A DNA stretch of 64,000 nucleotides, taken from Candidatus Bathyarchaeia archaeon (lineage in GTDB: Archaea; Thermoproteota; Bathyarchaeia; Bathyarchaeales; Bathycorpusculaceae). Under the pieces are notes generated by a model. The model saw only the letters and a list, made by a program, of their open reading frames with translations. It was not told the DNA's origin and did no database searches. The translations under genes were made by a program, and so were the position numbers. This document shows, piece by piece, positions 34,500 through 49,643 of this stretch (the first letter of the stretch is position 1; each line of letters begins with the position of its first letter). The stretch covers positions 384,001-448,000 of the forward strand of contig JAVYWL010000001.1 in assembly GCA_038727135.1 (NCBI GenBank), in the 5' to 3' direction.

Positions 34500-35507
34500 A
34501 TGGCAAAGCCTAAGGTTTACGTAACCCGTGAGCTTCCAGAAAGAGGAATGAAAATAATAAAGGAACGTTTTGACGCTGAAGTTTGGCCGGAGTATGGTCC
34601 GCCGCCGAAGGCGGAAATAATAAGGAAGGCGCGGGATGTTGACGCCTTAGTCACGCTTTTGTCGGATAAGATTGATGCTGAAGTTTTTGATGCTGCGCCG
34701 AAATTGAAAATTGTCGCTCAGATGGCTGTTGGCTTTGATAACATAGATGTTGCTGAAGCCACAAAGAGGGGCATATATGTGACGAACACCCCTGGCGTTT
34801 TAACAGAAACTACAGCGGATTTTGCTTGGGCTTTGTTGATGGCTGTTGCGAGGCGGGTTGTTGAGGCAGACAAATATGTTCGCACAGGACAATGGAAGGT
34901 TAGCTGGCACCCAAGCATGCTTCTAGGCAGAGATGTTTACGGCGCAACACTTGGCATTGTAGGTGCTGGCAGAATAGGAACGGCAGTCGCGAGGAGGGCA
35001 AAAGGCTTCAACATGAGGATTCTCTATTATGATGTTGTGCCTATGCCGCCAGAAGTAGAGAAGGAGTTGGGCGCGAAACGTGTGGATTTGGACACGCTTC
35101 TAAGGGAATCCGACTTTGTCAGCATTCACGTGCCTTTAATGAAGGAGACATATCATCTAATCAACGAAGAGAAGCTTAGGCTGATGAAGAAGACAGCCTA
35201 CCTAATCAACAACTCCAGAGGACCGGTGGTGGATGAAAAAGCCCTTTACAAAGCGTTGAAGGAAGGATGGATTGCTGGCGCAGCCTTAGACGTTTTTGAG
35301 CAGGAGCCCACGCCGGTGGATAATCCCTTGCTTAGGCTTGACAATGTCGTTGTGGCGCCCCACATTTCGAGTGCCAGCTATGAAACCCGCTCAAGGATGG
35401 CTGAGATGGTTGCGGAAAATTTGGTTGCCTTCTTTGAGGGAAAAACTCCGCCGAACCTCGTTAATCCAGACGTTGTTAAGGTACGCCCGTTATCCAAGCT
35501 CTTTTAA
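34500..35507 (+). CDS. gyaR: glyoxylate reductase (D-2-hydroxyacid dehydrogenase family)
   Basis: [48 protein letters not shown]; divergent from glycerate kinase. Confidence 0.92.
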
Positions 35508-39689: not shown

Positions 39690-40067
39690 CTTTTCAACCT
39701 TAATAGTTGCTCCACTTTTTATCTTGCTGAAAAGTTCAAGATTTTTAGTAACTTTGCCTAAAACGTTAACTGGACTATAAGGCTGGGACTCGCCGAAAAA
39801 AATGCATAATGCGCTTCCCATAGGCCAGAAGGCTATTGTGCCTTTTTCAACAGTGCTTTTTGCTTTTTCTTCACCCATTTTCACAGGGATTTCGAAGTAG
39901 ACTTCCTCTTTCCATAGGGCTGTTCTCCCCTCTATTGGTAGTTTTCGAACTATCATGTCCACTGTTCTTGGGGCTAGGTGGCGGACAAGCTCGCCTTCGG
40001 CTTCACCTAACCCCTCAACAATGAATTTTATTTTTACTCTTGAGATTTCGCCCTCTTCATTTCCCAT
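39684..40067 (-). CDS. cyclophilin-like fold protein (DUF369/TM1367 type)
   Basis: APRTV..I...LPI, W.EEVYF.IPV, G.IAFWP.G.A.CIFFG, PYSPVN.LG. Confidence 0.85.
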   Translation of the reverse strand: MGNEEGEISRVKIKFIVEGLGEAEGELVRHLAPRTVDMIVRKLPIEGRTALWKEEVYFEIPVKMGEEKAKSTVEKGTIAFWPMGSALCIFFGESQPYSPVNVLGKVTKNLELFSKIKSGATIKVEKL

Positions 40068-41394
40068 GCGTATGCACTTTCCCAAGAAAGTCTTCTAAAA
40101 TTTGCTCCAAGGACAATGGTCCCAAAACCTTGAGCTCGTACCTCACCCTTACCGTTGGCTTGTTGATTTCCATAACTCTTCTTAGGTCTACTGGTGTTCC
40201 GATGACCACAACGTCGCATGGTGTACGCATAATCGTTTCATTGAGCTCCTCAATCTGCTTTTCTCCATAGCCTAGGGCTGGCAGAACCGCTCCTAGGTGA
40301 GGGTACTTTTCATAAGCCTCCTTTATTGAGCCTACTGCGTATGGCCTTGGGTCGGCTAATTCGCTGGCTCCAAGCTGCTTAGCCAATATCGTCGCTGCAC
40401 CAAATGGCATGTCACCATGAGTTAATGTTGGACCGTCCTCAATCACAAGCACCCGCTTACCCTTAATCAGCTCCGGCTTGTCAGCGATTATTGGCGAAGA
40501 AGCCTCAAGTATAATTGCGTCTGGATTAACCCTCCTTATGTTCTCCTTAACGAGACTGACATTCTTGGGATCTGCGGTGTCAACTTTATTTATTATCACC
40601 ACATTTGCCATTCTGAGGTTGGCTTCTCCGGGATGATATGCAACCTCGTGTCCTGCCCTATGGGGGTCTGCCACAACTATGTGGAGGTCTGGCTTGTAGA
40701 AGGGTATGTCATTGTTTCCCCCGTCCCAAACAATAATGTCTGCTTCTTTTTCGGCTTCCCTTAAAATCCTCTCGTAGTCAACCCCGGCGTATACAACTAC
40801 TCCATTGTCTATGTGAGGTTCATATTCTTCTCTCTCCTCGATGGTGCACTCGTGTCTGTCGAGATCTTCGTAGGAGGCGAAGCGTTGGCACACCTGTTTG
40901 CGCAAGTCGCCATATGGCATTGGATGCCTAACAACCACAACGTTTAAGCCTTTGCCTTTCAGGATTTTGGCTACTTGCCGTGATGTTTGGCTTTTTCCAG
41001 AACCAGTTCTTACAGCGCCAACGGAGATTACAGGAACCTTAGCCTTAAGCATCGTCGTCTTTGGTCCCATAAGCCTAAAGTCTGCGCCGTTTGCCAGCGC
41101 TATTGACGCCTTATGCATAACGTACTCGTGGGAGACGTCGCTGTAGGCGAAAACAACCTGATCGACGTCAAAATCCCTTATTAGCCTTGCAAGCTCTTCT
41201 TCTGGATAAATCGGTATACCATTCGGATAATTTCTGCCAGCCAGTTCCGGCGGATATATTCTTCCCTCTATGCCTGGAATCTGTGTGGCAGTGAAAGCCA
41301 CAACATCGTAGGCATCGTTGTCTCTAAAATAGACGTTAAAATTGTGAAAGTCCCTGCCAGCTGCGCCCATTATAATAACCTTTGTTTTTGCCAT
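40057..41394 (-). CDS. P-loop GTPase / cyclic 2,3-diphosphoglycerate synthetase-like (COG2403)
   Basis: IMGAAGRDFHNFN, AVRTGSGKSQT, RHPMPYG, EEREEYEPH, WDGGNND, EDGPTLTHG. Confidence 0.88.
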   Translation of the reverse strand: MAKTKVIIMGAAGRDFHNFNVYFRDNDAYDVVAFTATQIPGIEGRIYPPELAGRNYPNGIPIYPEEELARLIRDFDVDQVVFAYSDVSHEYVMHKASIALANGADFRLMGPKTTMLKAKVPVISVGAVRTGSGKSQTSRQVAKILKGKGLNVVVVRHPMPYGDLRKQVCQRFASYEDLDRHECTIEEREEYEPHIDNGVVVYAGVDYERILREAEKEADIIVWDGGNNDIPFYKPDLHIVVADPHRAGHEVAYHPGEANLRMANVVIINKVDTADPKNVSLVKENIRRVNPDAIILEASSPIIADKPELIKGKRVLVIEDGPTLTHGDMPFGAATILAKQLGASELADPRPYAVGSIKEAYEKYPHLGAVLPALGYGEKQIEELNETIMRTPCDVVVIGTPVDLRRVMEINKPTVRVRYELKVLGPLSLEQILEDFLGKVHTHGK

Positions 41395-41474: not shown

Positions 41475-42584
41475 TCAACGTCGCCCAATCAAACGAGAAA
41501 CAGCCTCGCCTATAAATTCTATCTGCTCCGCCGTAACTCCGGGATGAACTGGCAGAGAAAGCACTTGCTCTGATGCTTTCTCCGTTTCTGGAAGCTTCCT
41601 TTTTCTAAATTTGCGGTAATATGGCATCAAGTGGATGGGCCATGGATAGTAGACTTCGGCGCCTATACCTTTCCTCCTCAAATTTTCAACAACAGCATCA
41701 CGCCTCGCTCTATCCGCATCTTTAATTCTCACCGTGTAGAGATACCAGCTGTTTCTGCAGCCTTCAAGCTCGCATGGAAGCTGAAGGTTTTTAACATCGC
41801 TCAGTTTTGCTGTGAGCCTTTCAGCGTTTTCTCTACGCTTGGCCAGAAAATTGGGCAGCTTCCTTAGCTGTACAATGCCTATTGCTGCTTCAATTTCTGG
41901 CATGCGGTAGTTGTGTCCCAAAAGGACGGACTTGTACTTTTCCTTCTCGCCGTGGCTTCTAATAAGCCTCAAGGTTCCAGCAATTTCATCATCATTTGTG
42001 GTTACCATGCCGCCTTCACCGGTTGTCATATTTTTACTTGCATAGAAACTCCAACATGCAACATCAGCAAAGGAGCCAACTGGCTTCCCTTTATAAACTG
42101 CACCGTGGGCTTGGGCTGCATCCTCAATAACTTTTAACCCGTGTTTGTCGGCTATTTCCCTTATCGGTTTCAGATCCGCTGGAGAACCGTAAAGATCTAC
42201 AGCAATCACAGCTTTAGTCTTCTTTGTTAGCGCTTTTTCAACGGCTTCCGGCGAAACATTATAGGTTTCAGGGTTTATATCTACAAAAACTGGTCTCGCC
42301 CCAGCCAACACAACCGTTTCCGCTGTTGCCACAAAGGTGAAGCTTGGCAAAACCACCTCGTCGCCCTGTTTTACGCCAGCAGCGGCTAAAGCCATGTGCA
42401 AGGCTGCTGTTCCACTGTTTACGGCTATGGCATGCTTCGCCTCAACAAATCTTGCAAACTCTTCTTCAAACTGCTTAACCATTGGTCCAGCGCCAAGCGC
42501 ATGTGTTAGGATGCCGCTTTTCAAAACTTTTGCAACAGCCTCAATTTCTTCTTCGCCTATTTGCGGAGCATTTATCGGAATCAT
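41475..42584 (-). CDS. DegT/DnrJ/EryC1/StrS sugar aminotransferase
   Basis: NSGTAALH, FTFVAT, EDAAQAHGA, SFYASKNMTTGEGG, G.NYRM, LSLPVHP. Confidence 0.94.
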   Translation of the reverse strand: MIPINAPQIGEEEIEAVAKVLKSGILTHALGAGPMVKQFEEEFARFVEAKHAIAVNSGTAALHMALAAAGVKQGDEVVLPSFTFVATAETVVLAGARPVFVDINPETYNVSPEAVEKALTKKTKAVIAVDLYGSPADLKPIREIADKHGLKVIEDAAQAHGAVYKGKPVGSFADVACWSFYASKNMTTGEGGMVTTNDDEIAGTLRLIRSHGEKEKYKSVLLGHNYRMPEIEAAIGIVQLRKLPNFLAKRRENAERLTAKLSDVKNLQLPCELEGCRNSWYLYTVRIKDADRARRDAVVENLRRKGIGAEVYYPWPIHLMPYYRKFRKRKLPETEKASEQVLSLPVHPGVTAEQIEFIGEAVSRLIGRR

Positions 42585-42751
42585 AGCGCATCTTCGCTAT
42601 TATGCTGTTTCCTAAATTTATTAAAACTTGCCAGAAAACATTATGCTCTAGGTCATATTGTAGCTGGCGAGACTTTACAAATGCGATACCCCTCTATAGA
42701 TTTTGCATAGCATAGCTATGAAAAAGAAAATTGTTAGAAACGGATGAGGCA

Positions 42752-43390
42752 TTAGCCGCTGGAATTATTTAAGCTCCTTATTCTGTTGATGAATTCCTCT
42801 CTTTCCTTTTCTACTTCTTTTATTCTCTGTTTTAGGAATTCGAGTTCTTCGGAGATTTCTTCAAGCCAGCCTTTTATGGCTTTCACGCCTTTTTCCGATG
42901 TCATTTCTGCGAGGTATTTGGAAACATCCTGCGGTTTGCGTTTTTCCAGAGCGGTTAGCGGATAGTTGATTTTTGGAGGCTTTAGAAAGGGGAAAAAGTG
43001 TCTTGTAGTTCTTGGTTCCATAAGCTTTCCACTTAGAGCCGCCGTGACCACGTTTTCAGCCGTTATGGGTGAGTTTGAATTTCCAATGTACCGGTGGATG
43101 CGCCTCCTACCGATGCGAATTTGGGGATTTTGAAAAATGTTGACACATAGAACCGGTATTTGTGTGTAGCCCAAGCTTTTTAGGGCGAGCCAACGGTGCA
43201 TACCGTCAAGTATGACATTTGTCTTTTCATCGGCAATTATTGGATATTTTAGAACGCCGTCTCGTAGAATCTCCTTTTTCAGCATCTCCAAATATAGAGG
43301 GGAGCCTTTCTCATGAGGCTTTAATGCGTCAATTGGTAAAAGTACAATTTTGAACGCCTCTGTCTTTTCGGTTTGGGTTGCGGTTGCCAC
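42752..43390 (-). CDS. ParB/sulfiredoxin-fold protein resembling free serine kinase SerK/SbnI
   Basis: L.PHE, PII.D, ILDGMHRW.AL..LG, P(R)TTRH motifs plus C-terminal coiled coil; likely GTG start 43390 (track start 43453); directly downstream of trpB2. Confidence 0.7.
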   Translation of the reverse strand: MATATQTEKTEAFKIVLLPIDALKPHEKGSPLYLEMLKKEILRDGVLKYPIIADEKTNVILDGMHRWLALKSLGYTQIPVLCVNIFQNPQIRIGRRRIHRYIGNSNSPITAENVVTAALSGKLMEPRTTRHFFPFLKPPKINYPLTALEKRKPQDVSKYLAEMTSEKGVKAIKGWLEEISEELEFLKQRIKEVEKEREEFINRIRSLNNSSG

Positions 43391-43412
43391 TTGCCTGTCG
43401 CCCTTAAGGGGG

Positions 43413-44774
43413 TTATTTAACAATTGTTGGAACATCGATTTTTTCCGGCTCATAATCCACCAGTTTTCCTGCCAAGAACTGCTCGTAGGCGCCTAAATCC
43501 AATAGTCCGTGCCCGCTATAGTTCATGGCGATAACCTTCTTCTCACCAGTTTTTCGACACCGCAAGGCTTCGTCTATAACGAATTTCAGGCTGTGGGCTG
43601 TTTCAGGTGCTATTATTAGGCCTTCTGCTTGAGCTAGAATTTGGGCTGCTTGGAAGACTTCAGTTTGGTGGTAGGCAACTGAACGCATATACCCCCTATG
43701 GATTAGATATGATATTGAGGGTGCCATTCCATGGTATCTTAAGCCTCCAGCATGGATTGGGGGGCATGCGTAGCCGTGTCCTATTGTGAGCATTTTAAGC
43801 AGTGGTGTCATTTCAGCCGTGTCGCCGAAATCGTATGTGTAAACTCCTTTGGTTGTGTGGGGAACAGCCTTAGACTCGCAAGCCACGAACTCTGTTTCAG
43901 TTTTGCCCTTAAGCTTGTCCATCATGAACGGGTAGCAGAAGCCGGCATAGTTGGAGCCCCCGCCTATGCATCCGCAAACGATATCCGGGTACTCGCCAAT
44001 GATTTCAAACTGTTTTTTAGCTTCTAAGCCTATTATGGTCTGGTGCAACAGCACATGGTTTAGAACTGAACCCAAAGAATACCTCGTGTCCTCATGTGTC
44101 ATCGTGTCTTCTATGGCTTCACTTATGGCGATTCCCAGCGTTCCCGGATGGTTGGGGTTTTCCTTCAAGAGCTTTCTGCCAAAGTTCGTCTGGTCGCTTG
44201 GTGAAGGAAACATCTCAGCGCCATATAACTGTGCTATGGTTCTTCTTCCGGGCTTCTGCTGGTAGCTAACGCGAACCATGTATATGCGGCACTTTAAACC
44301 GAAAATTGTGCAAGCAAAGGCTAATGCAGTGCCCCACTGTCCAGCACCTGTTTCTGTCACAAGCCTTTTTATGCCTTGTTCCTTGTTGTAGTAGGCTTGG
44401 GCTATAGCAGTATTCGTCTTGTGGCTTCCAGTTGGACTAAAATTCTCGCATTTAAAGTATATCTTTGCCGGAGTTTTCAGAAACTTTTCAAGCCTCCTAG
44501 CCCTATAAAGCGGCGTTGGACGGGGCAATCGCAAATAAGCGTCTAAAACCTCTTCTGGAATTTTTATGAAGCGCTCTGTGGAAACCTCTTGCCTAATCAG
44601 CTCCTTTGCAAATATTCTCTCCAGGAGTTTTGGGTCTATGGGTTTTAGGGTTGTGGGATCCAACGGCGGCGGAAGCGGCTCTGGCAGGTCTGCCTGAATG
44701 TTGTACCACGCGGTGGGGATTTCATCAGCGCCTAGCATTGTGAAGTGTTCGCTTTTCTGAACTTTAAAGTTCAT
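43413..44774 (-). CDS. trpB2: TrpB2 (type 2 tryptophan synthase beta, PLP enzyme)
   Basis: P..WYNI..DLP, RPTPL.RA..LE, GSHK.N.A, TETGAGQWG, GTLGIAISEA, Y.LGSVLN, GGGSN, HAGGLRYHG, SGHG..DL. Confidence 0.95.
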   Translation of the reverse strand: MNFKVQKSEHFTMLGADEIPTAWYNIQADLPEPLPPPLDPTTLKPIDPKLLERIFAKELIRQEVSTERFIKIPEEVLDAYLRLPRPTPLYRARRLEKFLKTPAKIYFKCENFSPTGSHKTNTAIAQAYYNKEQGIKRLVTETGAGQWGTALAFACTIFGLKCRIYMVRVSYQQKPGRRTIAQLYGAEMFPSPSDQTNFGRKLLKENPNHPGTLGIAISEAIEDTMTHEDTRYSLGSVLNHVLLHQTIIGLEAKKQFEIIGEYPDIVCGCIGGGSNYAGFCYPFMMDKLKGKTETEFVACESKAVPHTTKGVYTYDFGDTAEMTPLLKMLTIGHGYACPPIHAGGLRYHGMAPSISYLIHRGYMRSVAYHQTEVFQAAQILAQAEGLIIAPETAHSLKFVIDEALRCRKTGEKKVIAMNYSGHGLLDLGAYEQFLAGKLVDYEPEKIDVPTIVK

Positions 44775-44787
44775 TATTATTCACCTA

Positions 44788-44860
44788 TGTACATTTTAAT
44801 ACGTTTAAGCACGTAATAAAACATTGAACATATTTATACTTTATTGCACAAAAAAGTACA
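44788..44860. promoter_or_regulatory. array of TRP boxes (TGTACA-like, 10-bp phasing) in the divergent trpB2/trpY promoter
   Basis: TGTACA 44788; TGAACA 44825, TATACT 44835, TGCACA 44845, AGTACA 44855 (6-bp boxes, 4-bp spacers). Confidence 0.75.
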
Positions 44861-44876
44861 TTAGGCAGACAGAAAC

Positions 44877-45380
44877 ATGTGGAACACGATAAAAAAGCAT
44901 TTCGAAAACTATCCAGAACGCCTAAAAGTAGCCAGAGTCCTCGTGGAAAATGGACTGAGCATAAAAAATGGAAAAATATACTTGAACGAGATAGAGATTC
45001 CGCCAACACGAATAGCAAGAGTGACAGGAGTAGACAGGAGAACAGTAAACGAAACAATAAACACCATAAGAGCGAACCGCGAACTCCGCCTAATATTCGA
45101 AGGCTTAAGGCCAGCGGGACATTCCCTAAAAGAAATAGCAAAACATTTGGAACTCGGCGTGGTAGAAATAACTCCAGTGGATGCCAGAATACCAGGCATA
45201 TTGGCAAATTCAGCCATGATACTGGCAAAAAACGGCCTAAGTATAAGACAGGCAATAGTTGACGACCCAGAACTCTCGCCAGAACCAAAGCTAACACTTA
45301 TTGTAGAGAAAAAGGTTCCAGGCGAACTTATCCCAGAATTCCTGAAAGTTAAGGGAGTTGCCAAAGTATCAATTTATTAA
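44877..45380 (+). CDS. trpY: TrpY-type tryptophan-responsive regulator (HTH + ACT, COG2150)
   Basis: MW..IK..FE.YP.R..VAR, GVDRRTV, LG.VEI..DAR.PGILA, ISIRQA..DPEL...P.LT, GV..VSIY; divergent from trpB2 with TRP boxes between. Confidence 0.85.
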   Translation: MWNTIKKHFENYPERLKVARVLVENGLSIKNGKIYLNEIEIPPTRIARVTGVDRRTVNETINTIRANRELRLIFEGLRPAGHSLKEIAKHLELGVVEITPVDARIPGILANSAMILAKNGLSIRQAIVDDPELSPEPKLTLIVEKKVPGELIPEFLKVKGVAKVSIY

Positions 45381-45414: not shown

Positions 45415-46131
45415 GTGCGAAGTCAAAAAATATATGCTGCTTTTAGCAAAATTGTCATGATAATGTTGATGGATATCGTAAAAAGGTTAAGCATTGGATG
45501 TTTATTTCTTATGGTAGCATTTTTCCCGTTAGTGGAGACAGCCTCCAATTTTCCTGAAAATGAACCATGTTTGGTGAAATTTAAATACGTTAATGGACAA
45601 TGGTTTGTAGACGATGAAATTCTAAAGCTTGTTACCCCCTTGCATTTTGAGGGTCCTATAATCCCAATAAGAATTGTTGATTTGGGGAACTTTTTCAAAG
45701 TTCTTGAAGAAGAAAAAACTCAACCTGTTCAAATCAAAATGAAGGCTGAAGGGCCATTTCCATCTAACATTACATTAGAGTTTAAGGGCGAAAAAGCCGT
45801 TCTGATACCTGAAATTATTAAAATAGAAATACCAATTAACGGCACAATTCTACTAGGCTATGCATATAGGTACGGGCCTTATGGAGGAGGCTGCCTTATA
45901 GGAATTCAGATTTCAGTAACATGGACCCCAGATGACCAAGTGCTTTACATTGTTTGTTACGATGCTACCACTGGAGAAGGCCGACTCCACAGAGCTACCG
46001 ATGGTCATGGCTTCGTTATTTTTGACACAAATCCGACAAGAGAATACTATGTTTTAATAGGAAACCCTTCAGAGGAAAATATAGAAGCGATAACTTACAG
46101 CGGTATTATAACCTTATATTACAGACCATAA
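45415..46131 (+). CDS. hypothetical secreted/surface protein with possible C-terminal PPC-like beta-sandwich
   Basis: signal-peptide-like KRLSIGCLFLMVAFFPL..A; C-terminal ISVTWTP...YYVLIGN...YSG.ITL; true start may be a downstream ATG. Confidence 0.6.
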   Translation: MRSQKIYAAFSKIVMIMLMDIVKRLSIGCLFLMVAFFPLVETASNFPENEPCLVKFKYVNGQWFVDDEILKLVTPLHFEGPIIPIRIVDLGNFFKVLEEEKTQPVQIKMKAEGPFPSNITLEFKGEKAVLIPEIIKIEIPINGTILLGYAYRYGPYGGGCLIGIQISVTWTPDDQVLYIVCYDATTGEGRLHRATDGHGFVIFDTNPTREYYVLIGNPSEENIEAITYSGIITLYYRP

Positions 46132-46133
46132 GT

Positions 46134-47240
46134 TTAACTTTTCTGAGGGTTCTTTTCAATACATTCTTCAGGTTTGATATTTGTTTTTTGATTTTTTAGA
46201 GACTCTGCAATTATTTTCTCCAATTTTTTCTGAGGTATAGTTTGACTGGACTTTTCTTTCAACATACCTGACGGCCTAAAAATCAATATTAAAAGGATTA
46301 TCGAACCCAGTAGGAGATAATCTAACCAAACCACATCGAATGGAAGGAAGGCAAATGAGTATTTATAAAACACTATTAATTTCCGTAACGTAATAAAGAT
46401 TAGGGTGCCCAACGCTACGCCGAAGTTGTTTCCCACTCCTCCAAATATTACCATAAGCCACGGAAGAAAGGTCCACTCCAATTTGCCGTAAACTGCAGGG
46501 CCAACATAACATGTATAAAATGCGTAGAGTGCACCTGCCAAACCGGAGATCATAGAACCAAGCACCAAAACTTCCAGCCTAATCTTCGTCACATCTTTAC
46601 CCATAGATAAAGCTGCAACTTCATTATCTCTCATCGCACGGAAAGCTCTGCATAGAGGAGAACGGGCCAAAAGCTCAAGAAATAATAATGTTCCTATAGC
46701 CGCCGCAAGCAGCACAATTGTGATTAGAGTAAATCGGTTGCGGCCTAGCCAGCTCCATACGTCTGGCACAAGTATCCCTATAACCCCTCCCACCAGTGGA
46801 TCATAATTTCTTCCTATTATCGATAGAGCCTCGCCTAGTGCCAAAAGCGTTATAGCCAAATAATCGGTTCTTAATCTAACTGCAGGATACGATGAAATAA
46901 ACCCCAATAAACCGCCCACACCCATAGCAATTATTAGCGTCAAAATAAATACGCAAAGTCCAATTAAAGGCTGAGTTTGAATATGACTGTTGATTTGAGA
47001 GACAATTATTGCATTATTCTTTACAATGTTCCCTCCGAGTTGTGAGTCTACGTTAAATATCCACATGCAAAGTCTTATGGGAAACCACCCTACAGTGAAA
47101 GCCCCGCCTGTAACGGCTAATACTAAGCCAAAATTGGGTATCCCAGCATAGCCGAGCTGTAAGTTTAAACTCAGATTTAGTATTAGGTATATTGCAAAAA
47201 GTGCTACCAAGTCTATTGTAAATAGGATTAGGCTTTCCGT
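46134..47240 (-). CDS. livM: branched-chain-amino-acid-type ABC permease LivM; probable ACG start 47240
   Basis: LSLNLQ.GY.GIPNFG, RLR.DYLAI, A.RDNE.AA...G, GG.GN..G, RP.G. Confidence 0.88.
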   Translation of the reverse strand, partial: TESLILFTIDLVALFAIYLILNLSLNLQLGYAGIPNFGLVLAVTGGAFTVGWFPIRLCMWIFNVDSQLGGNIVKNNAIIVSQINSHIQTQPLIGLCVFILTLIIAMGVGGLLGFISSYPAVRLRTDYLAITLLALGEALSIIGRNYDPLVGGVIGILVPDVWSWLGRNRFTLITIVLLAAAIGTLLFLELLARSPLCRAFRAMRDNEVAALSMGKDVTKIRLEVLVLGSMISGLAGALYAFYTCYVGPAVYGKLEWTFLPWLMVIFGGVGNNFGVALGTLIFITLRKLIVFYKYSFAFLPFDVVWLDYLLLGSIILLILIFRPSGMLKEKSSQTIPQKKLEKIIAESLKNQKTNIKPEECIEKNPQKS

Positions 47241-48172
47241 TTAGATGCACCTCCAAATCTGACAAACGTTAAGATTTTCTTCCAGTTTACTTTCGCAATG
47301 CCGCTTGGGGCAAAAAGTAACGCAAATATCAAGATCACCATAGGCAAAAGCGTCTTATATGGAATTATGGCTGGACCTAAGAATATAGATAAAGCCGCTG
47401 TTCCAAGTATTTGTGTAAAACCTACAAAGAAGCCTCCTAAAACTGTCCCGTATATCTCCTCAACACCACCGACTATGCTAACACAAAACATAATTGCAAG
47501 TAACGAGTCGCCAAGAACAGGTTTCCCTTGAACCCAAAGGGGGAGGAGCCCCCCGGCAACTCCTCCCAATCCGCCAGAAATGAACCACGAAAGTAAATTT
47601 GTATACTTTACATTAATTCCGCTAATGCTTGCCAACGTTGGGTTGCACACACACGCCTTGAGGGCGACGCCTATCTTAGTATAATTTAGAACTACATATA
47701 AGACCGCCAAGAAACCTACCAAAAAGGAAAGAGAAGCCCAAAAAATTCCAGGTTCGTCAAGAAACACAAAATCTAATTCTCTTAAAAGAAAGTTTTTTGA
47801 GGGAAAGTTAAAAGTATATTGCAAGTAGTCTGCATAAATGTTTATTATACTTAACATCATCAAGTCAAAGGCAAGGGTGCTAACAAGCATCATGGTTGTG
47901 GAAGCTTTTCTTTTCCTTAAAGGTTCTATAATTAACATATATTCCATCACAGCGATTATGGCACTTAAAATAAAAGCTAAAGGTAAATAGATATATGGGC
48001 TCCCACCCCAAAAACTTATGCACGTAAAAACTACATATGCGCCCACCGTTACAAGACTGGCGTGTGCAACATTCCATACACCAGTAGTTCTACGTACGAA
48101 GCTCAAGCCAAAAGTCATTACAGCGAGGAGGGAACAATAAGTTATAGAATCCATCAATGTTGGGTCAATCAT
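47228..48172 (-). CDS. livH: branched-chain-amino-acid-type ABC permease LivH
   Basis: N.AH...T.GAY, T.IG.A.KA...NP.LA...GIN, VGG, P.GI. Confidence 0.88.
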   Translation of the reverse strand: MIDPTLMDSITYCSLLAVMTFGLSFVRRTTGVWNVAHASLVTVGAYVVFTCISFWGGSPYIYLPLAFILSAIIAVMEYMLIIEPLRKRKASTTMMLVSTLAFDLMMLSIINIYADYLQYTFNFPSKNFLLRELDFVFLDEPGIFWASLSFLVGFLAVLYVVLNYTKIGVALKACVCNPTLASISGINVKYTNLLSWFISGGLGGVAGGLLPLWVQGKPVLGDSLLAIMFCVSIVGGVEEIYGTVLGGFFVGFTQILGTAALSIFLGPAIIPYKTLLPMVILIFALLFAPSGIAKVNWKKILTFVRFGGASKRKA

Positions 48173-48891
48173 TTTCTCTCCGCCTTTAACCCTAAATAAA
48201 GTTCAACTAGTTCTCCTGTGCTCAAAAGTTCGTCGGGTTTTCCTGAAAAAACATTCTTGCCGCTAACTACCAGGTATGTTCTATCACTTACGCTTAATGC
48301 TTTTTTGGCGTTTTGTTCAACTAAAACTATACCAACACCAAGCTTATCCCTTAGATCAACTATTTTTTCTAAAATTTTTTGGCAAATTACCGGGGCAAGT
48401 CCAGATAACGGTTCATCCAACATAATTAGCCGTGGTTTGCGCACCAGTGTCATCGCTATGGCAAGCATCTGCCTTTCCCCACCACTAAGTGTGCCGGCTT
48501 TTCTAGAAAGAAAGGGTTCAAGAGTTGGAAATACGGAAAGTACCTCGTCCATGGCGTCCTTCAATTCCTTTTTCGAATTTAGAGAATAACCAGCCATCAA
48601 TAAGTTTTCTTTCACCGATAAGTCTGCAAATATGTTGTTCATTTGAGGCAGATAGGCGATTCCTACCTTCGAGATTTCATGTGGCGGCATATTGTTAAGC
48701 TTTCTACCATCAAAAATTATCGAGCCTGAAAAAATGTCTGCCAACCCAAAAATGGAGTTTAAAAGTGTTGTTTTCCCACTTCCATTAGGCCCTATAACAG
48801 ATACTATTTCAGACTTCTCACATTCAAGGCTTATGTCGAACAATACATGGAGTTTTCCGTAGCCTGAATTTAGGTTAGTCACACTTAACAT
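48169..48891 (-). CDS. livF: ABC ATPase LivF
   Basis: GPNGSGKTT, LSGGERQMLAI, LDEP..GLAP, LVEQN. Confidence 0.92.
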   Translation of the reverse strand: MLSVTNLNSGYGKLHVLFDISLECEKSEIVSVIGPNGSGKTTLLNSIFGLADIFSGSIIFDGRKLNNMPPHEISKVGIAYLPQMNNIFADLSVKENLLMAGYSLNSKKELKDAMDEVLSVFPTLEPFLSRKAGTLSGGERQMLAIAMTLVRKPRLIMLDEPLSGLAPVICQKILEKIVDLRDKLGVGIVLVEQNAKKALSVSDRTYLVVSGKNVFSGKPDELLSTGELVELYLGLKAERK

Positions 48892-48893
48892 TG

Positions 48894-49643
48894 TTATTCG
48901 CCTACGTAAACCTTCTTTACAATAGGATCAGCAACTACTTGTTCGGGTGTTCCCTCAGAAATTACTTTGCCATTGTGCATGACATAAACATAGTCGGCAA
49001 ATGGTAGTGCAATGTCAAGTCTATGTTCTACCACAAGAAATGTTAAACCTTGTTTATCCCTTAGTTCTCTGATGTGATGAAATATTTCGTTGGCAAGTTT
49101 TGGAGAAACGCCGCAAATCGGCTCATCTAAAATAACCATCTTAGCATCAGCCATTAAAGCCCTCCCTATTTCAACAAGCTTTAAATGCCCCGCTGGCAAG
49201 GATGTTATCGGGGTATTCCAAAATTCTGTGAGTTGCAAAATTTCCATTACATCCATAGCTTTTTTAACCAATTTTTCTTCATATTCAATCCATCTCTTTT
49301 TAATGAAACTTTTTACAAAAGTTTCTCCTGGATTCCCCCTTCCTGCAACAAGAAGGTTTTCTAAAACTGTTAAACCTAGAAAAAGAGAGGGTATTTGGAA
49401 GGACCTCACGATACGTCTTTCGTATATTTTGTTCATCGGCAGTCCTGTTACGTCTTCTCCTTCAAAGTATACTTTTCCCTCGTCAGGCTTGTAGTAACCC
49501 GTGATAACGTTAATCAGTGTTGTTTTCCCACTTCCATTAGGCCCTATAAGTAGTGTTATCTTTTTCTTTTCAGCACTTAAATCGACGCCATCTACAGCTT
49601 TTAGTCCACCGAAGTATTTTTTGACCCCTTCGGTTTTTAGCAT
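48894..49643 (-). CDS. livG: ABC ATPase LivG
   Basis: FGGLKAVDG, GPNGSGKTT, RSFQIP, LDEP..GV, VEH, V...Y.G. Confidence 0.92.
   Translation of the reverse strand: MLKTEGVKKYFGGLKAVDGVDLSAEKKKITLLIGPNGSGKTTLINVITGYYKPDEGKVYFEGEDVTGLPMNKIYERRIVRSFQIPSLFLGLTVLENLLVAGRGNPGETFVKSFIKKRWIEYEEKLVKKAMDVMEILQLTEFWNTPITSLPAGHLKLVEIGRALMADAKMVILDEPICGVSPKLANEIFHHIRELRDKQGLTFLVVEHRLDIALPFADYVYVMHNGKVISEGTPEQVVADPIVKKVYVGE

Follow-up and report, generated by a model that had tools for sequence, protein, structure and literature searches.

A minimal SerK/SbnI-like protein encoded with trpB2 opposite trpY in Bathyarchaeia, a probable O-phosphoserine supply for indole salvage

TrpB2 enzymes are widespread, and both the supply of O-phosphoserine in vivo and the reason for a TrpA-independent TrpB are long-standing questions. 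We know of no dedicated O-phosphoserine source beside trpB2 in studied organisms. The enzymes are reported to use, or depend on, O-phospho-L-serine (Busch 2014, as cited in PMC11917138). The Thermococcus kodakarensis protein SerK (TK0378) is described as an adenosine diphosphate (ADP)-dependent kinase of free L-serine that provides O-phosphoserine to CysK, and its family as one thought to be confined to Thermococcales and Desulfurococcales (PMC5120207); SbnI is likewise cited as a serine kinase in PMC12704722. On the side of regulation, Methanothermobacter thermautotrophicus is described as having trpY divergent from trpEGCFBAD, and with operator boxes that recur in the promoter region common to both (PMC6737238). 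Here we examine a locus of a Candidatus Bathyarchaeia archaeon, within a 64,000-nucleotide stretch (assembly GCA_038727135.1, contig JAVYWL010000001.1, positions 384,001–448,000; hereafter the window), in which trpB2 is followed by a ParB-like gene and faces a trpY-family gene. By analogy with the described systems, the locus would join O-phosphoserine supply of the SerK/SbnI type with the O-phosphoserine use reported for TrpB2. Its elements, in window coordinates, are:

42752–43390 (GTG start, 212 amino acids) or 42752–43453 (ATG start, up to 233 amino acids), minus strand: ParB-like gene, encoding a shortened SerK/SbnI-like protein
43413–44774, minus strand: trpB2, encoding a stand-alone TrpB-like pyridoxal phosphate (PLP) enzyme of 453 amino acids, from the open reading frame (ORF) and family models
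44775–44876: divergent control region, the 102-bp spacer between trpB2 and trpY
44877–45380, plus strand: trpY-family transcription regulator of 167 amino acids, divergent from trpB2

A first-pass annotation of this stretch proposed that the ParB-like protein is a serine kinase feeding TrpB2 under tryptophan feedback, and each computational test that it suggested has come out in support, with enzymatic activity and substrate as the predicted parts of the proposal. At a probability of roughly 0.65, we interpret the locus as encoding a dedicated kinase that would make O-phosphoserine for TrpB2 in a tryptophan-repressed indole salvage. In this model the ParB-fold protein, a minimal free-amino-acid kinase of the SerK/SbnI clade, would phosphorylate L-serine to O-phospho-L-serine (the model specifies no nucleotide donor), and TrpB2 would join this product to indole, yielding L-tryptophan. 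Because the genome carries no other trp biosynthesis gene, the module would serve for indole salvage. When tryptophan is plentiful, TrpY would act on boxes with a GTAC core and shut off both promoters.

Support for the kinase assignment comes from sequence comparisons. Among NCBIfam models SerK ranks first for the ParB-like protein (E 3.7e-15) and SbnI second (E 6e-8). The only PDB sequence matches better than E 0.1 are SerK, the Pyrococcus furiosus SerK homologue and SbnI, with SerK 5x0b at E 7e-9 (2.4e-10 with a profile), SbnI next and Noc at only 0.15. The alignment to SerK is in two pieces, residues 33–114 (numbered throughout on the 233-residue form) with SerK 15–99 and residues 131–166 with SerK 204–238, and identity is about 24% over the aligned residues. 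The PHE, DG.HR and TTRH motifs remarked on in the first-pass annotation are located at 46–48, 83–87 and 147–152, as P46-H47-E48, DGMHR (D83–R87) and PRTTRH (P147–H152). E48 falls on the catalytic Glu30 of the T. kodakarensis enzyme, the residue changed in the E30Q and E30A entries, while DGMHR aligns to DGHHR and PRTTRH-FFPF to PKTTRH-VLPF of 5x0b. Residues E48, D83, G84, H86, R87, P147, T150 and H152 are invariant in 20 aligned homologues, and across 13 divergent relatives the E, D-G-x-H-R and the P and H of P-x-T-T-x-H are still invariant. The invariance of the catalytic Glu and of DGxHR argues for catalysis.

The fold gives the same ranking. Foldseek with the AlphaFold2 model scores SerK/SbnI at 3e-7 (SerK 3.4e-7), ParB/Noc at 2e-4 and sulfiredoxin at 3e-3. 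The five best VIA-align rows (1vk1, 5x0k, 5x0j, SbnI 5uje and 5x0e) have Z of 16.3–14.7 and root-mean-square deviations of 2.0–2.8 over 125–134 residues, with 1vk1 at Z 16.3, 5x0k at 15.6, 5x0j at 15.1 (2.0 over 125 residues) and 5uje at 15.0. The remaining SerK/SbnI rows fall at Z 11.8–12.4 and the next family at 7.8; ParB/Noc entries, among ranks 11–19, reach 7.1–7.6, and the sulfiredoxin comparison (Z 7.8 to 6ky4) reflects the common fold only. The closest group to the ParB-like protein is that of SerK and SbnI, kinases of free serine: both rank first, at Z 15–16 as against 7–8, and the clustering with partition ParB or sulfiredoxin that would speak against a kinase is seen neither by sequence nor by Foldseek or VIA-align. 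Searches of Pfam and NCBIfam returned no helix-turn-helix (HTH) family and no TIGR00180 match at E <= 0.01, and the Pfam ParB_N (PF02195) score of 18.3 bits is below the 26.3 cut-off. The marks of a canonical partition ParB or Noc (ParB_N over its gathering score, an HTH and a ParA partner) are absent, and the neighbours are trpB2 and an aminotransferase gene. A defence-system reading was rejected because no PADLOC family matched. The first-pass annotation expected automated pipelines to call the gene a ParB-like nuclease; the public label reads 'ParB N-terminal domain-containing protein' or 'hypothetical protein' and does not mention a nuclease.

Relative to SerK, the protein shares the ParB/Srx-fold N-domain, the Glu in P-H-E, DG-x-HR and the C-terminal (K/R)TTRH-x-x-PF, as well as the proposed role of making O-phosphoserine for a fold-type-II PLP beta-replacement enzyme. 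It differs in being shorter and in two additions. One is an invariant G-x-RR-x-HRY loop, whose RRxHRY has no counterpart in SerK; the other is a single long C-terminal helix (residues 186–231, about 45 residues, coiled coil) that is conserved in sequence across homologues. Residues 1–31 of the long form are predicted to be disordered. The gene also differs in its setting, a probable trpB2 operon under TrpY, whereas serK of T. kodakarensis is described as standing alone (PMC5120207). The SbnI/SbnA pair of the staphyloferrin B pathway in Staphylococcus aureus offers a similar logic, since there a SerK-like kinase is clustered with the PLP enzyme that consumes its O-phosphoserine; here, however, the partner is TrpB2, not SbnA. 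We know of no counterpart of SbnI's regulatory role for the window protein. Judged from sequence, we regard the ParB-like protein as a minimal relative of the SerK/SbnI clade that lies outside both equivalogs, with predicted kinase activity and L-serine as its putative substrate.

The association with TrpB2 was examined in a one-genome-per-species scan, which yielded 80 loci, 74 of them from Bathyarchaeia. The ParB-like gene is directly downstream of trpB2 in all 74, and TrpY is divergent from trpB2 in every one of the 67 loci that reach far enough, the other seven being cut off by the contig end within or next to trpB2. Since gene order is shared among related genomes, these 74 loci are not independent observations, and the persistence of the link through replacement of each partner is stronger evidence than the count. 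Three TrpB2 clades can be distinguished by identity in these genomes: (i) clade A, the window type, with 77–92% identity among the members compared; (ii) clade B, 75–95% identical internally and 55–61% identical to clade A and (iii) clade C, the genome's second copy, 51–55% identical to A and B. In five loci (L026, L031, L042, L050 and L056) TrpB2 is only 50–58% identical to that of the window, yet it adjoins the ParB-like gene. L031, L042 and L056 have a clade B TrpB2, grouped with those of L094 and L095, beside a window-type kinase gene; in L026 and L050, which were left out of the clade comparison, the identity is 50–53%. In L094 and L095 themselves, the clade B TrpB2 gene lies downstream of a gene for a different kinase type, a 'mini-SerK' of 135–158 residues without the coiled coil and with the motifs HE, DGHHR and PPKSTWH, and the pair is divergent from a TrpY that is 81–85% identical to the window TrpY. 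The same pairing thus holds without exception across two gene orders, two TrpB2 clades and two kinase subfamilies. The trpB2/ParB-like adjacency that the first-pass annotation wished to see surveyed is therefore not only conserved in Bathyarchaeia but recurs with another kinase subfamily and another gene order. When 201 genomes of the class were sampled, 133 gave some match, whereas a near-full-length match of the window type (E <= 1e-85) was found in only eight, the window's own genome included, with one further genome (G036) giving a partial window-type match.

The partner itself is readily classified. The 453-residue protein scores 684.8 bits with TIGR01415 (cut-off 518.85) and 700.6 bits with NF009057 (cut-off 366), which makes it a TrpB2, and only 158 bits with the TrpB1 model against a cut-off of 392. 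The PLP lysine of the SHK motif, K119, is invariant in 17 TrpB2 sequences. Among solved structures the nearest chain is 6hul_B ('Tryptophan synthase beta chain 1'), followed by 4qys_B and 6hte_B ('beta chain 2'), at E 8e-153 to 5e-140; we take all three to be Sulfolobus TrpB2 enzymes. The locus TrpB2 would, by analogy with such paralogues, use O-phosphoserine. It is set apart from them by a kinase-like gene that is probably co-transcribed with trpB2 and by the absence of the rest of the trp pathway. A predicted complex of TrpB2 with the kinase-like protein scored 0.00 in two runs and gave no call, which counts neither way. A second TrpB2 paralogue of 434 amino acids (L083:1279–2583, on G000:C1), 54% identical to that of the window, lies about 187 kb from the module between flap-endonuclease-like and protein-isoaspartate methyltransferase-like genes, as read from translations, with no kinase gene or trpY near it.

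The regulator is assigned to the TrpY family with 196 bits to TrpY_fam NF053754 (cut-off 180). TGTACA is the TRP-box consensus, and the 102-bp spacer contains TGTACA at 44788–44793 on the trpB2 side and AGTACA at 44855–44860 on the trpY side, which bears out the divergent TrpY-type regulator with TRP boxes between that the first-pass annotation had described. There are only six TGTACA in the 64-kb window. Of 67 loci, 65 have a hexamer with a GTAC core 10–19 nt from the start of trpY and 48 have one on the trpB2 side, and GTAC density is 18.8 per kb in the spacers versus 1.67 per kb across the loci overall, an 11-fold enrichment. Aligning 13 spacers brings out, on the trpB2 side, as many as three boxes at intervals of about 10 bp, immediately before a GGAG-type ribosome-binding site. 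Two further elements of the control region are:

44833–44838, on the side of the plus-strand gene: TTTATA block, TATA-box-like for trpY, invariant in the 13 aligned spacers
just upstream of the trpB2 start, minus strand: GGTGA

The arrangement agrees with the one described for TrpY of M. thermautotrophicus (PMC6737238). Tryptophan-dependent repression of the module by TrpY at the GTAC-core boxes is suggested by these sites and by analogy with that organism, although the unit that would be regulated here is only trpB2 and the kinase-like gene, not a full trp operon. A caveat is that the T. kodakarensis homologue of TrpY is reported not to regulate trp (PMC6737238), and a trp role of TrpY thus cannot be assumed from homology alone.

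The content of the genome (1.55 Mb, seven contigs, 94.7% complete) was searched for trp families with control genomes that all matched. Over the whole genome trpA gave only a 24-bit match below cut-off, trpB1 gave none over cut-off, and trpC, trpD and trpE gave no match; it follows that the window has no other trp gene either, as the first-pass annotation had stated of it. With the rest of the pathway missing, TrpB2 would not be finishing de novo tryptophan synthesis in this genome, and condensing imported indole would be its only evident tryptophan route. Four of five other genomes with the kinase–trpB2 module (those four are 93–100% complete) also lack trpA and trpC. The serine genes give a more mixed picture. 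In the whole genome there is no SerC_1 match, one class-V aminotransferase (38.7 bits), no SerB-type phosphatase over cut-off (just HAD-domain matches in large proteins) and no SepRS, the lone 90.7-bit match being far below cut-off and a suspected aminoacyl-tRNA-synthetase relative. Three SerA-like dehydrogenases are present, all below the PGDH cut-off. One of them, a SerA-like 2-hydroxyacid dehydrogenase at about 34512–35486 on the plus strand (297.8 bits to PGDH), lies about 7 kb from the module. These dehydrogenases and the class-V aminotransferase make a source of O-phosphoserine other than the kinase possible. The lack of trpA, trpC, trpD and trpE supports the first-pass proposal, and the route that it had called self-contained is so only putatively.

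The arrangement of the two minus-strand genes depends on where the ParB-like gene begins. Of its three possible starts, the GTG at 43390 is where many of the 20 aligned homologues begin and leaves a 22-nt gap after the trpB2 stop, whereas the ATG at 43453 makes the gene overlap trpB2 by 41 nt; either agrees with the earlier description of the genes as lying within about 20 bp or overlapping. The trpB2 gene and then the serK-like gene probably form a two-gene operon, read divergently from trpY, and a likely site for its archaeal transcription end follows:

42721–42730, minus strand: oligo-T tract TTTTCTTTTT, 22–31 nt past the stop of the ParB-like gene (sequence inspection)

A bacterial-type promoter and terminator scan of the locus gave only chance-level hits, a type of scan ill-suited to an archaeon. 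Evidence for transcription in situ comes from a hot-spring metatranscriptome (X7), of which about 5% of the run was read and in which 39 reads matched the locus, 16 at >=99% identity, 16 at 95–99% and 7 at 90–95%. First mates are all on the plus strand over trpB2 and the kinase gene (42791–44701) and on the minus strand over trpY, which under the usual stranded-library convention fits transcription in the expected gene directions (minus and plus, respectively). Apart from one empty bin, reads cover the stretch from 44701 down to 42791, and depth is 0 in the bin 42700–42790. Position 43184 is the start of six molecules and 43556 the end of six; taken as read pairs spanning the trpB2/serK-like junction, they lend modest support to co-transcription. 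Run X1 is probably DNA and was used for presence only, and X5 and X6, with 0 reads, provide no test.

The surroundings of the module are less constant. A DegT/DnrJ-family aminotransferase gene (41475–42584, minus strand) lies downstream of it, and a gene for a 445-residue P-loop protein (40057–41394, minus strand), with weak CobW/LpxK matches only, travels with it; both hold in most Bathyarchaeia loci. Insertions of up to about 3 kb split the two from the module in some loci, and no functional link is evident. Beside trpY, a 238-residue ORF (45415–46131, plus strand) has no Pfam match and is present among the 80 loci only in that of a near-identical genome (L068). It is followed at 46134–49643, on the minus strand, by two permease-like ORFs and two Walker-A ORFs which, judged from their translations, are ABC-transporter-like.

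A related pairing occurs elsewhere in the same genome. Contig 4 (G000; L089:1507–3231, plus strand) encodes a 574-residue fusion of a SerK-like module to a CysK/M-like PLP domain. Its N-terminal module, roughly the first 130 residues, matches the window protein with 38% identity over 160 residues and carries the motifs HEE, DGEHR and PKTTCH; a degenerate second copy of the module and then the CysK/M-like domain follow. It has in common with the trpB2 locus the minimal kinase module and the logic of a kinase with a fold-type-II PLP enzyme, and differs in being fused, in its tandem duplication, in lacking the coiled coil and in its CysK/M-like partner. Upstream of this gene lies a divergent 131-residue Cys-rich HTH-like gene, and the same type of regulator is found beside the L097 pair and L106. 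Such proteins are numerous: a word-indexed search with a mini-SerK profile returned 87 longer relatives, and for 80 of these the precomputed Pfam column lists PF00291. These 80 are 392–908 residues long, mostly about 575–600, and are publicly named only cysteine synthase or PLP-dependent enzyme; the two that were tested (P0287 and P0348) are both of CysK/M type, not TrpB2. Unfused mini-SerK genes with CysK/M-like neighbours occur in L096, L097, L101 and L105. No kinase–TrpB2 fusion was found, either among 1394 candidates from a search of longer proteins with the window-type query or in the mini-SerK profile search, which is weak evidence because the search is word-based.

Several more distant arrangements were also seen. 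P0356 (908 residues, Chloroflexi bin) combines Ser/Thr-dehydratase-like PLP and phosphoglycerate-dehydrogenase-like parts with a full-length SbnI-like domain (87 bits), which makes it a further fusion of the kinase family within serine metabolism. In the Aeropyrum pernix O-phosphoserine sulfhydrylase (PDB 1wkv, 3vsc, 6l0p and 6l0q), the N-terminal 75 residues align to 37–173 of the kinase model at Z 5.5–5.8; this segment may have been left over, in degenerate form, from a kinase::CysK fusion, or it may just have the common fold. In L092, L093 and L098 (family f2, genus g15) mini-SerK is a stand-alone gene, lying between undecaprenyl-diphosphatase-like and ribonucleotide-reductase-like genes according to translations, with no PLP enzyme nearby.

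We consider it a possible, still tentative, generalization that Bathyarchaeia carry out beta-replacement on O-phosphoserine through interchangeable cassettes, each made up of an end-product regulator, a minimal SerK-like kinase and a fold-type-II PLP enzyme. The tryptophan version would consist of TrpY, the kinase and TrpB2, converting indole to tryptophan, and the cysteine version of the Cys-rich HTH regulator and the kinase::CysK/M fusion. On this view, the mini-SerK of about 130 residues would represent the family's real catalytic core. In its boldest form, the idea has the coiled-coil kinase docking on TrpB2 and handing over O-phosphoserine, taking the place that TrpA has on TrpB1.

Several observations weigh against a dedicated serine kinase. 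Scores to both equivalog models are far below cut-off: 55.7 bits in two stretches for SerK (NF053625, ADP-dependent L-serine kinase) against 380, and 32.3 bits, in the N-domain only, for SbnI (NF033589) against 350. In the two-piece alignment residues 114–131 span SerK 99–204, which leaves about 100 central SerK residues without a counterpart. The Arg of TTRH varies, with PPKSTWH in the other TrpB2-linked kinase type and PKTTCH in the CysK/M fusion. The AlphaFold2 model has a moderate mean predicted local distance difference test (pLDDT) score of 73.8, and the invariant loop at 116–124 is below 50. RNA support amounts to 39 reads, and the junction-spanning molecules may be copies of one molecule. 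One module-bearing genome, G129, has both trpA and trpC. Finally, of 16 SerK-like loci sampled in other genomes, 10 show no neighbour of either the TrpB2 or the CysK-like kind within the stretch retrieved; contig ends cut two of these ten.

The neighbourhoods of relatives outside Bathyarchaeia add to these points. The six nearest (L076–L081; bacteria, DPANN archaea and one Methanosarcinales bin) share 33–39% identity with the window protein as well as its coiled coil, with no trpB2 nearby. In L076, L077, L078 and L081 the gene adjoins or is fused with cytidylyltransferase-like domains, in L079 and L080 it adjoins an NTP-transferase-type gene, and L076, L077 and L081 have a neighbour of the Asp/Glu-racemase type. 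CDP-alcohol phosphatidyltransferase neighbours are confirmed by Pfam in L077 and L079; the neighbours of L076 and L080 are named from translations only. The ancestral substrate of the subfamily may consequently not be L-serine, and the neighbourhoods suggest an undescribed pathway in which a small hydroxyl compound would be phosphorylated, activated with cytidine monophosphate (CMP) and transferred.

Some of these considerations favor an alternative that we regard as unlikely but worth weighing, in which the protein is a SerK-clade phosphotransferase or nucleotide-binding protein whose substrate is not L-serine. It could act on another small hydroxyl compound, or serve as a nucleotide-sensing accessory subunit that provides no substrate but tunes TrpB2 as a stand-in for activation of the TrpA type. 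The distance from both equivalogs, the missing central residues, and the conserved coiled coil and RRxHRY loop would all fit, and the partners of the outside relatives would suggest that a phospho-alcohol is formed and next activated with CMP. In other proteins the ParB fold has the role of a switch or scaffold, and an archaeal SerK-like protein is reported to bind cytidine triphosphate (CTP) rather than ATP (PMC12704722). Against this alternative stand the invariant catalytic Glu and DGxHR, and also the company that the module keeps: two kinase subfamilies pair with TrpB2, and in a third context the module's partner is a CysK/M-like enzyme. To our knowledge, O-phosphoserine is the only metabolite common to TrpB2 and enzymes of the O-phosphoserine sulfhydrylase type.

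It is quite improbable that the kinase functions mainly in serine assimilation (serine to O-phosphoserine, which an aminotransferase and a SerA-like dehydrogenase would convert to 3-phosphoglycerate) or in providing O-phosphoserine generally, with its position beside trpB2 a lineage-specific accident. SerK has been proposed to feed serine into central metabolism (PMC5120207), the SerA-like dehydrogenases and the class-V aminotransferase are at hand in the genome, and gene order is broadly kept among related Bathyarchaeia, with the DegT and 445-residue genes travelling along. However, the trpB2 linkage outlasts a TrpB2 swap, a kinase swap and a change of gene order, always under a divergent TrpY, and the two genes are separated by 22 nt or overlap, with read pairs placed across the junction. 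Insertions, moreover, interrupt the DegT link in several loci, whereas trpB2 stays linked in all 74.

Least probable is that the protein has nothing to do with tryptophan and is a common DNA-binding, partition or nuclease protein of the ParB type, or else a sulfiredoxin; the weak ParB_N match, the public name and a report of the P. furiosus SerK homologue as a nuclease (PMC5120207) speak for it. Against it, an HTH or other DNA-binding domain and any defence-family match are absent, fold scores are SerK/SbnI-like, trpB2 linkage is strict and the fusion and neighbour partners of the relatives are all small-molecule enzymes; on these grounds we reject the partition or nuclease reading. Among the nearest relatives examined (two sets, of 10 and 3) fusions are to metabolic enzymes, with nucleotidyltransferases, an Asn-synthase-like domain or PALP as partners of close relatives and an HTH in 0 of 10 tested; the 80 PALP-carrying fusions agree.

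For the dedicated serine kinase feeding TrpB2, we found no earlier description in the literature: neither a SerK-like gene with trpB2, in line with the first-pass annotation's remark that no SerK–TrpB2 operon was known, nor the CysK fusions, most subscription papers and supplements lying outside the coverage of the search. The main text of a 2025 survey of the ParB-CTPase fold (PMC12704722) has no mention of tryptophan, TrpB, PLP, pyridoxal or cysteine synthase.

A kinase gene tied to trpB2 is the first genomic pointer that we have found to a dedicated substrate supply for TrpB2, and it makes indole salvage on O-phosphoserine directly testable with two small proteins. It would also extend the SerK family well past Thermococcales and Desulfurococcales and define a much smaller catalytic unit. 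Proteins scoring E <= 0.001 against the window protein number 603, and for several hundred proteins the systematic label 'ParB N-terminal domain-containing protein' would be corrected. For the organisms, the finding suggests that hot-spring and sediment archaea with the module depend on indole released by their neighbours.

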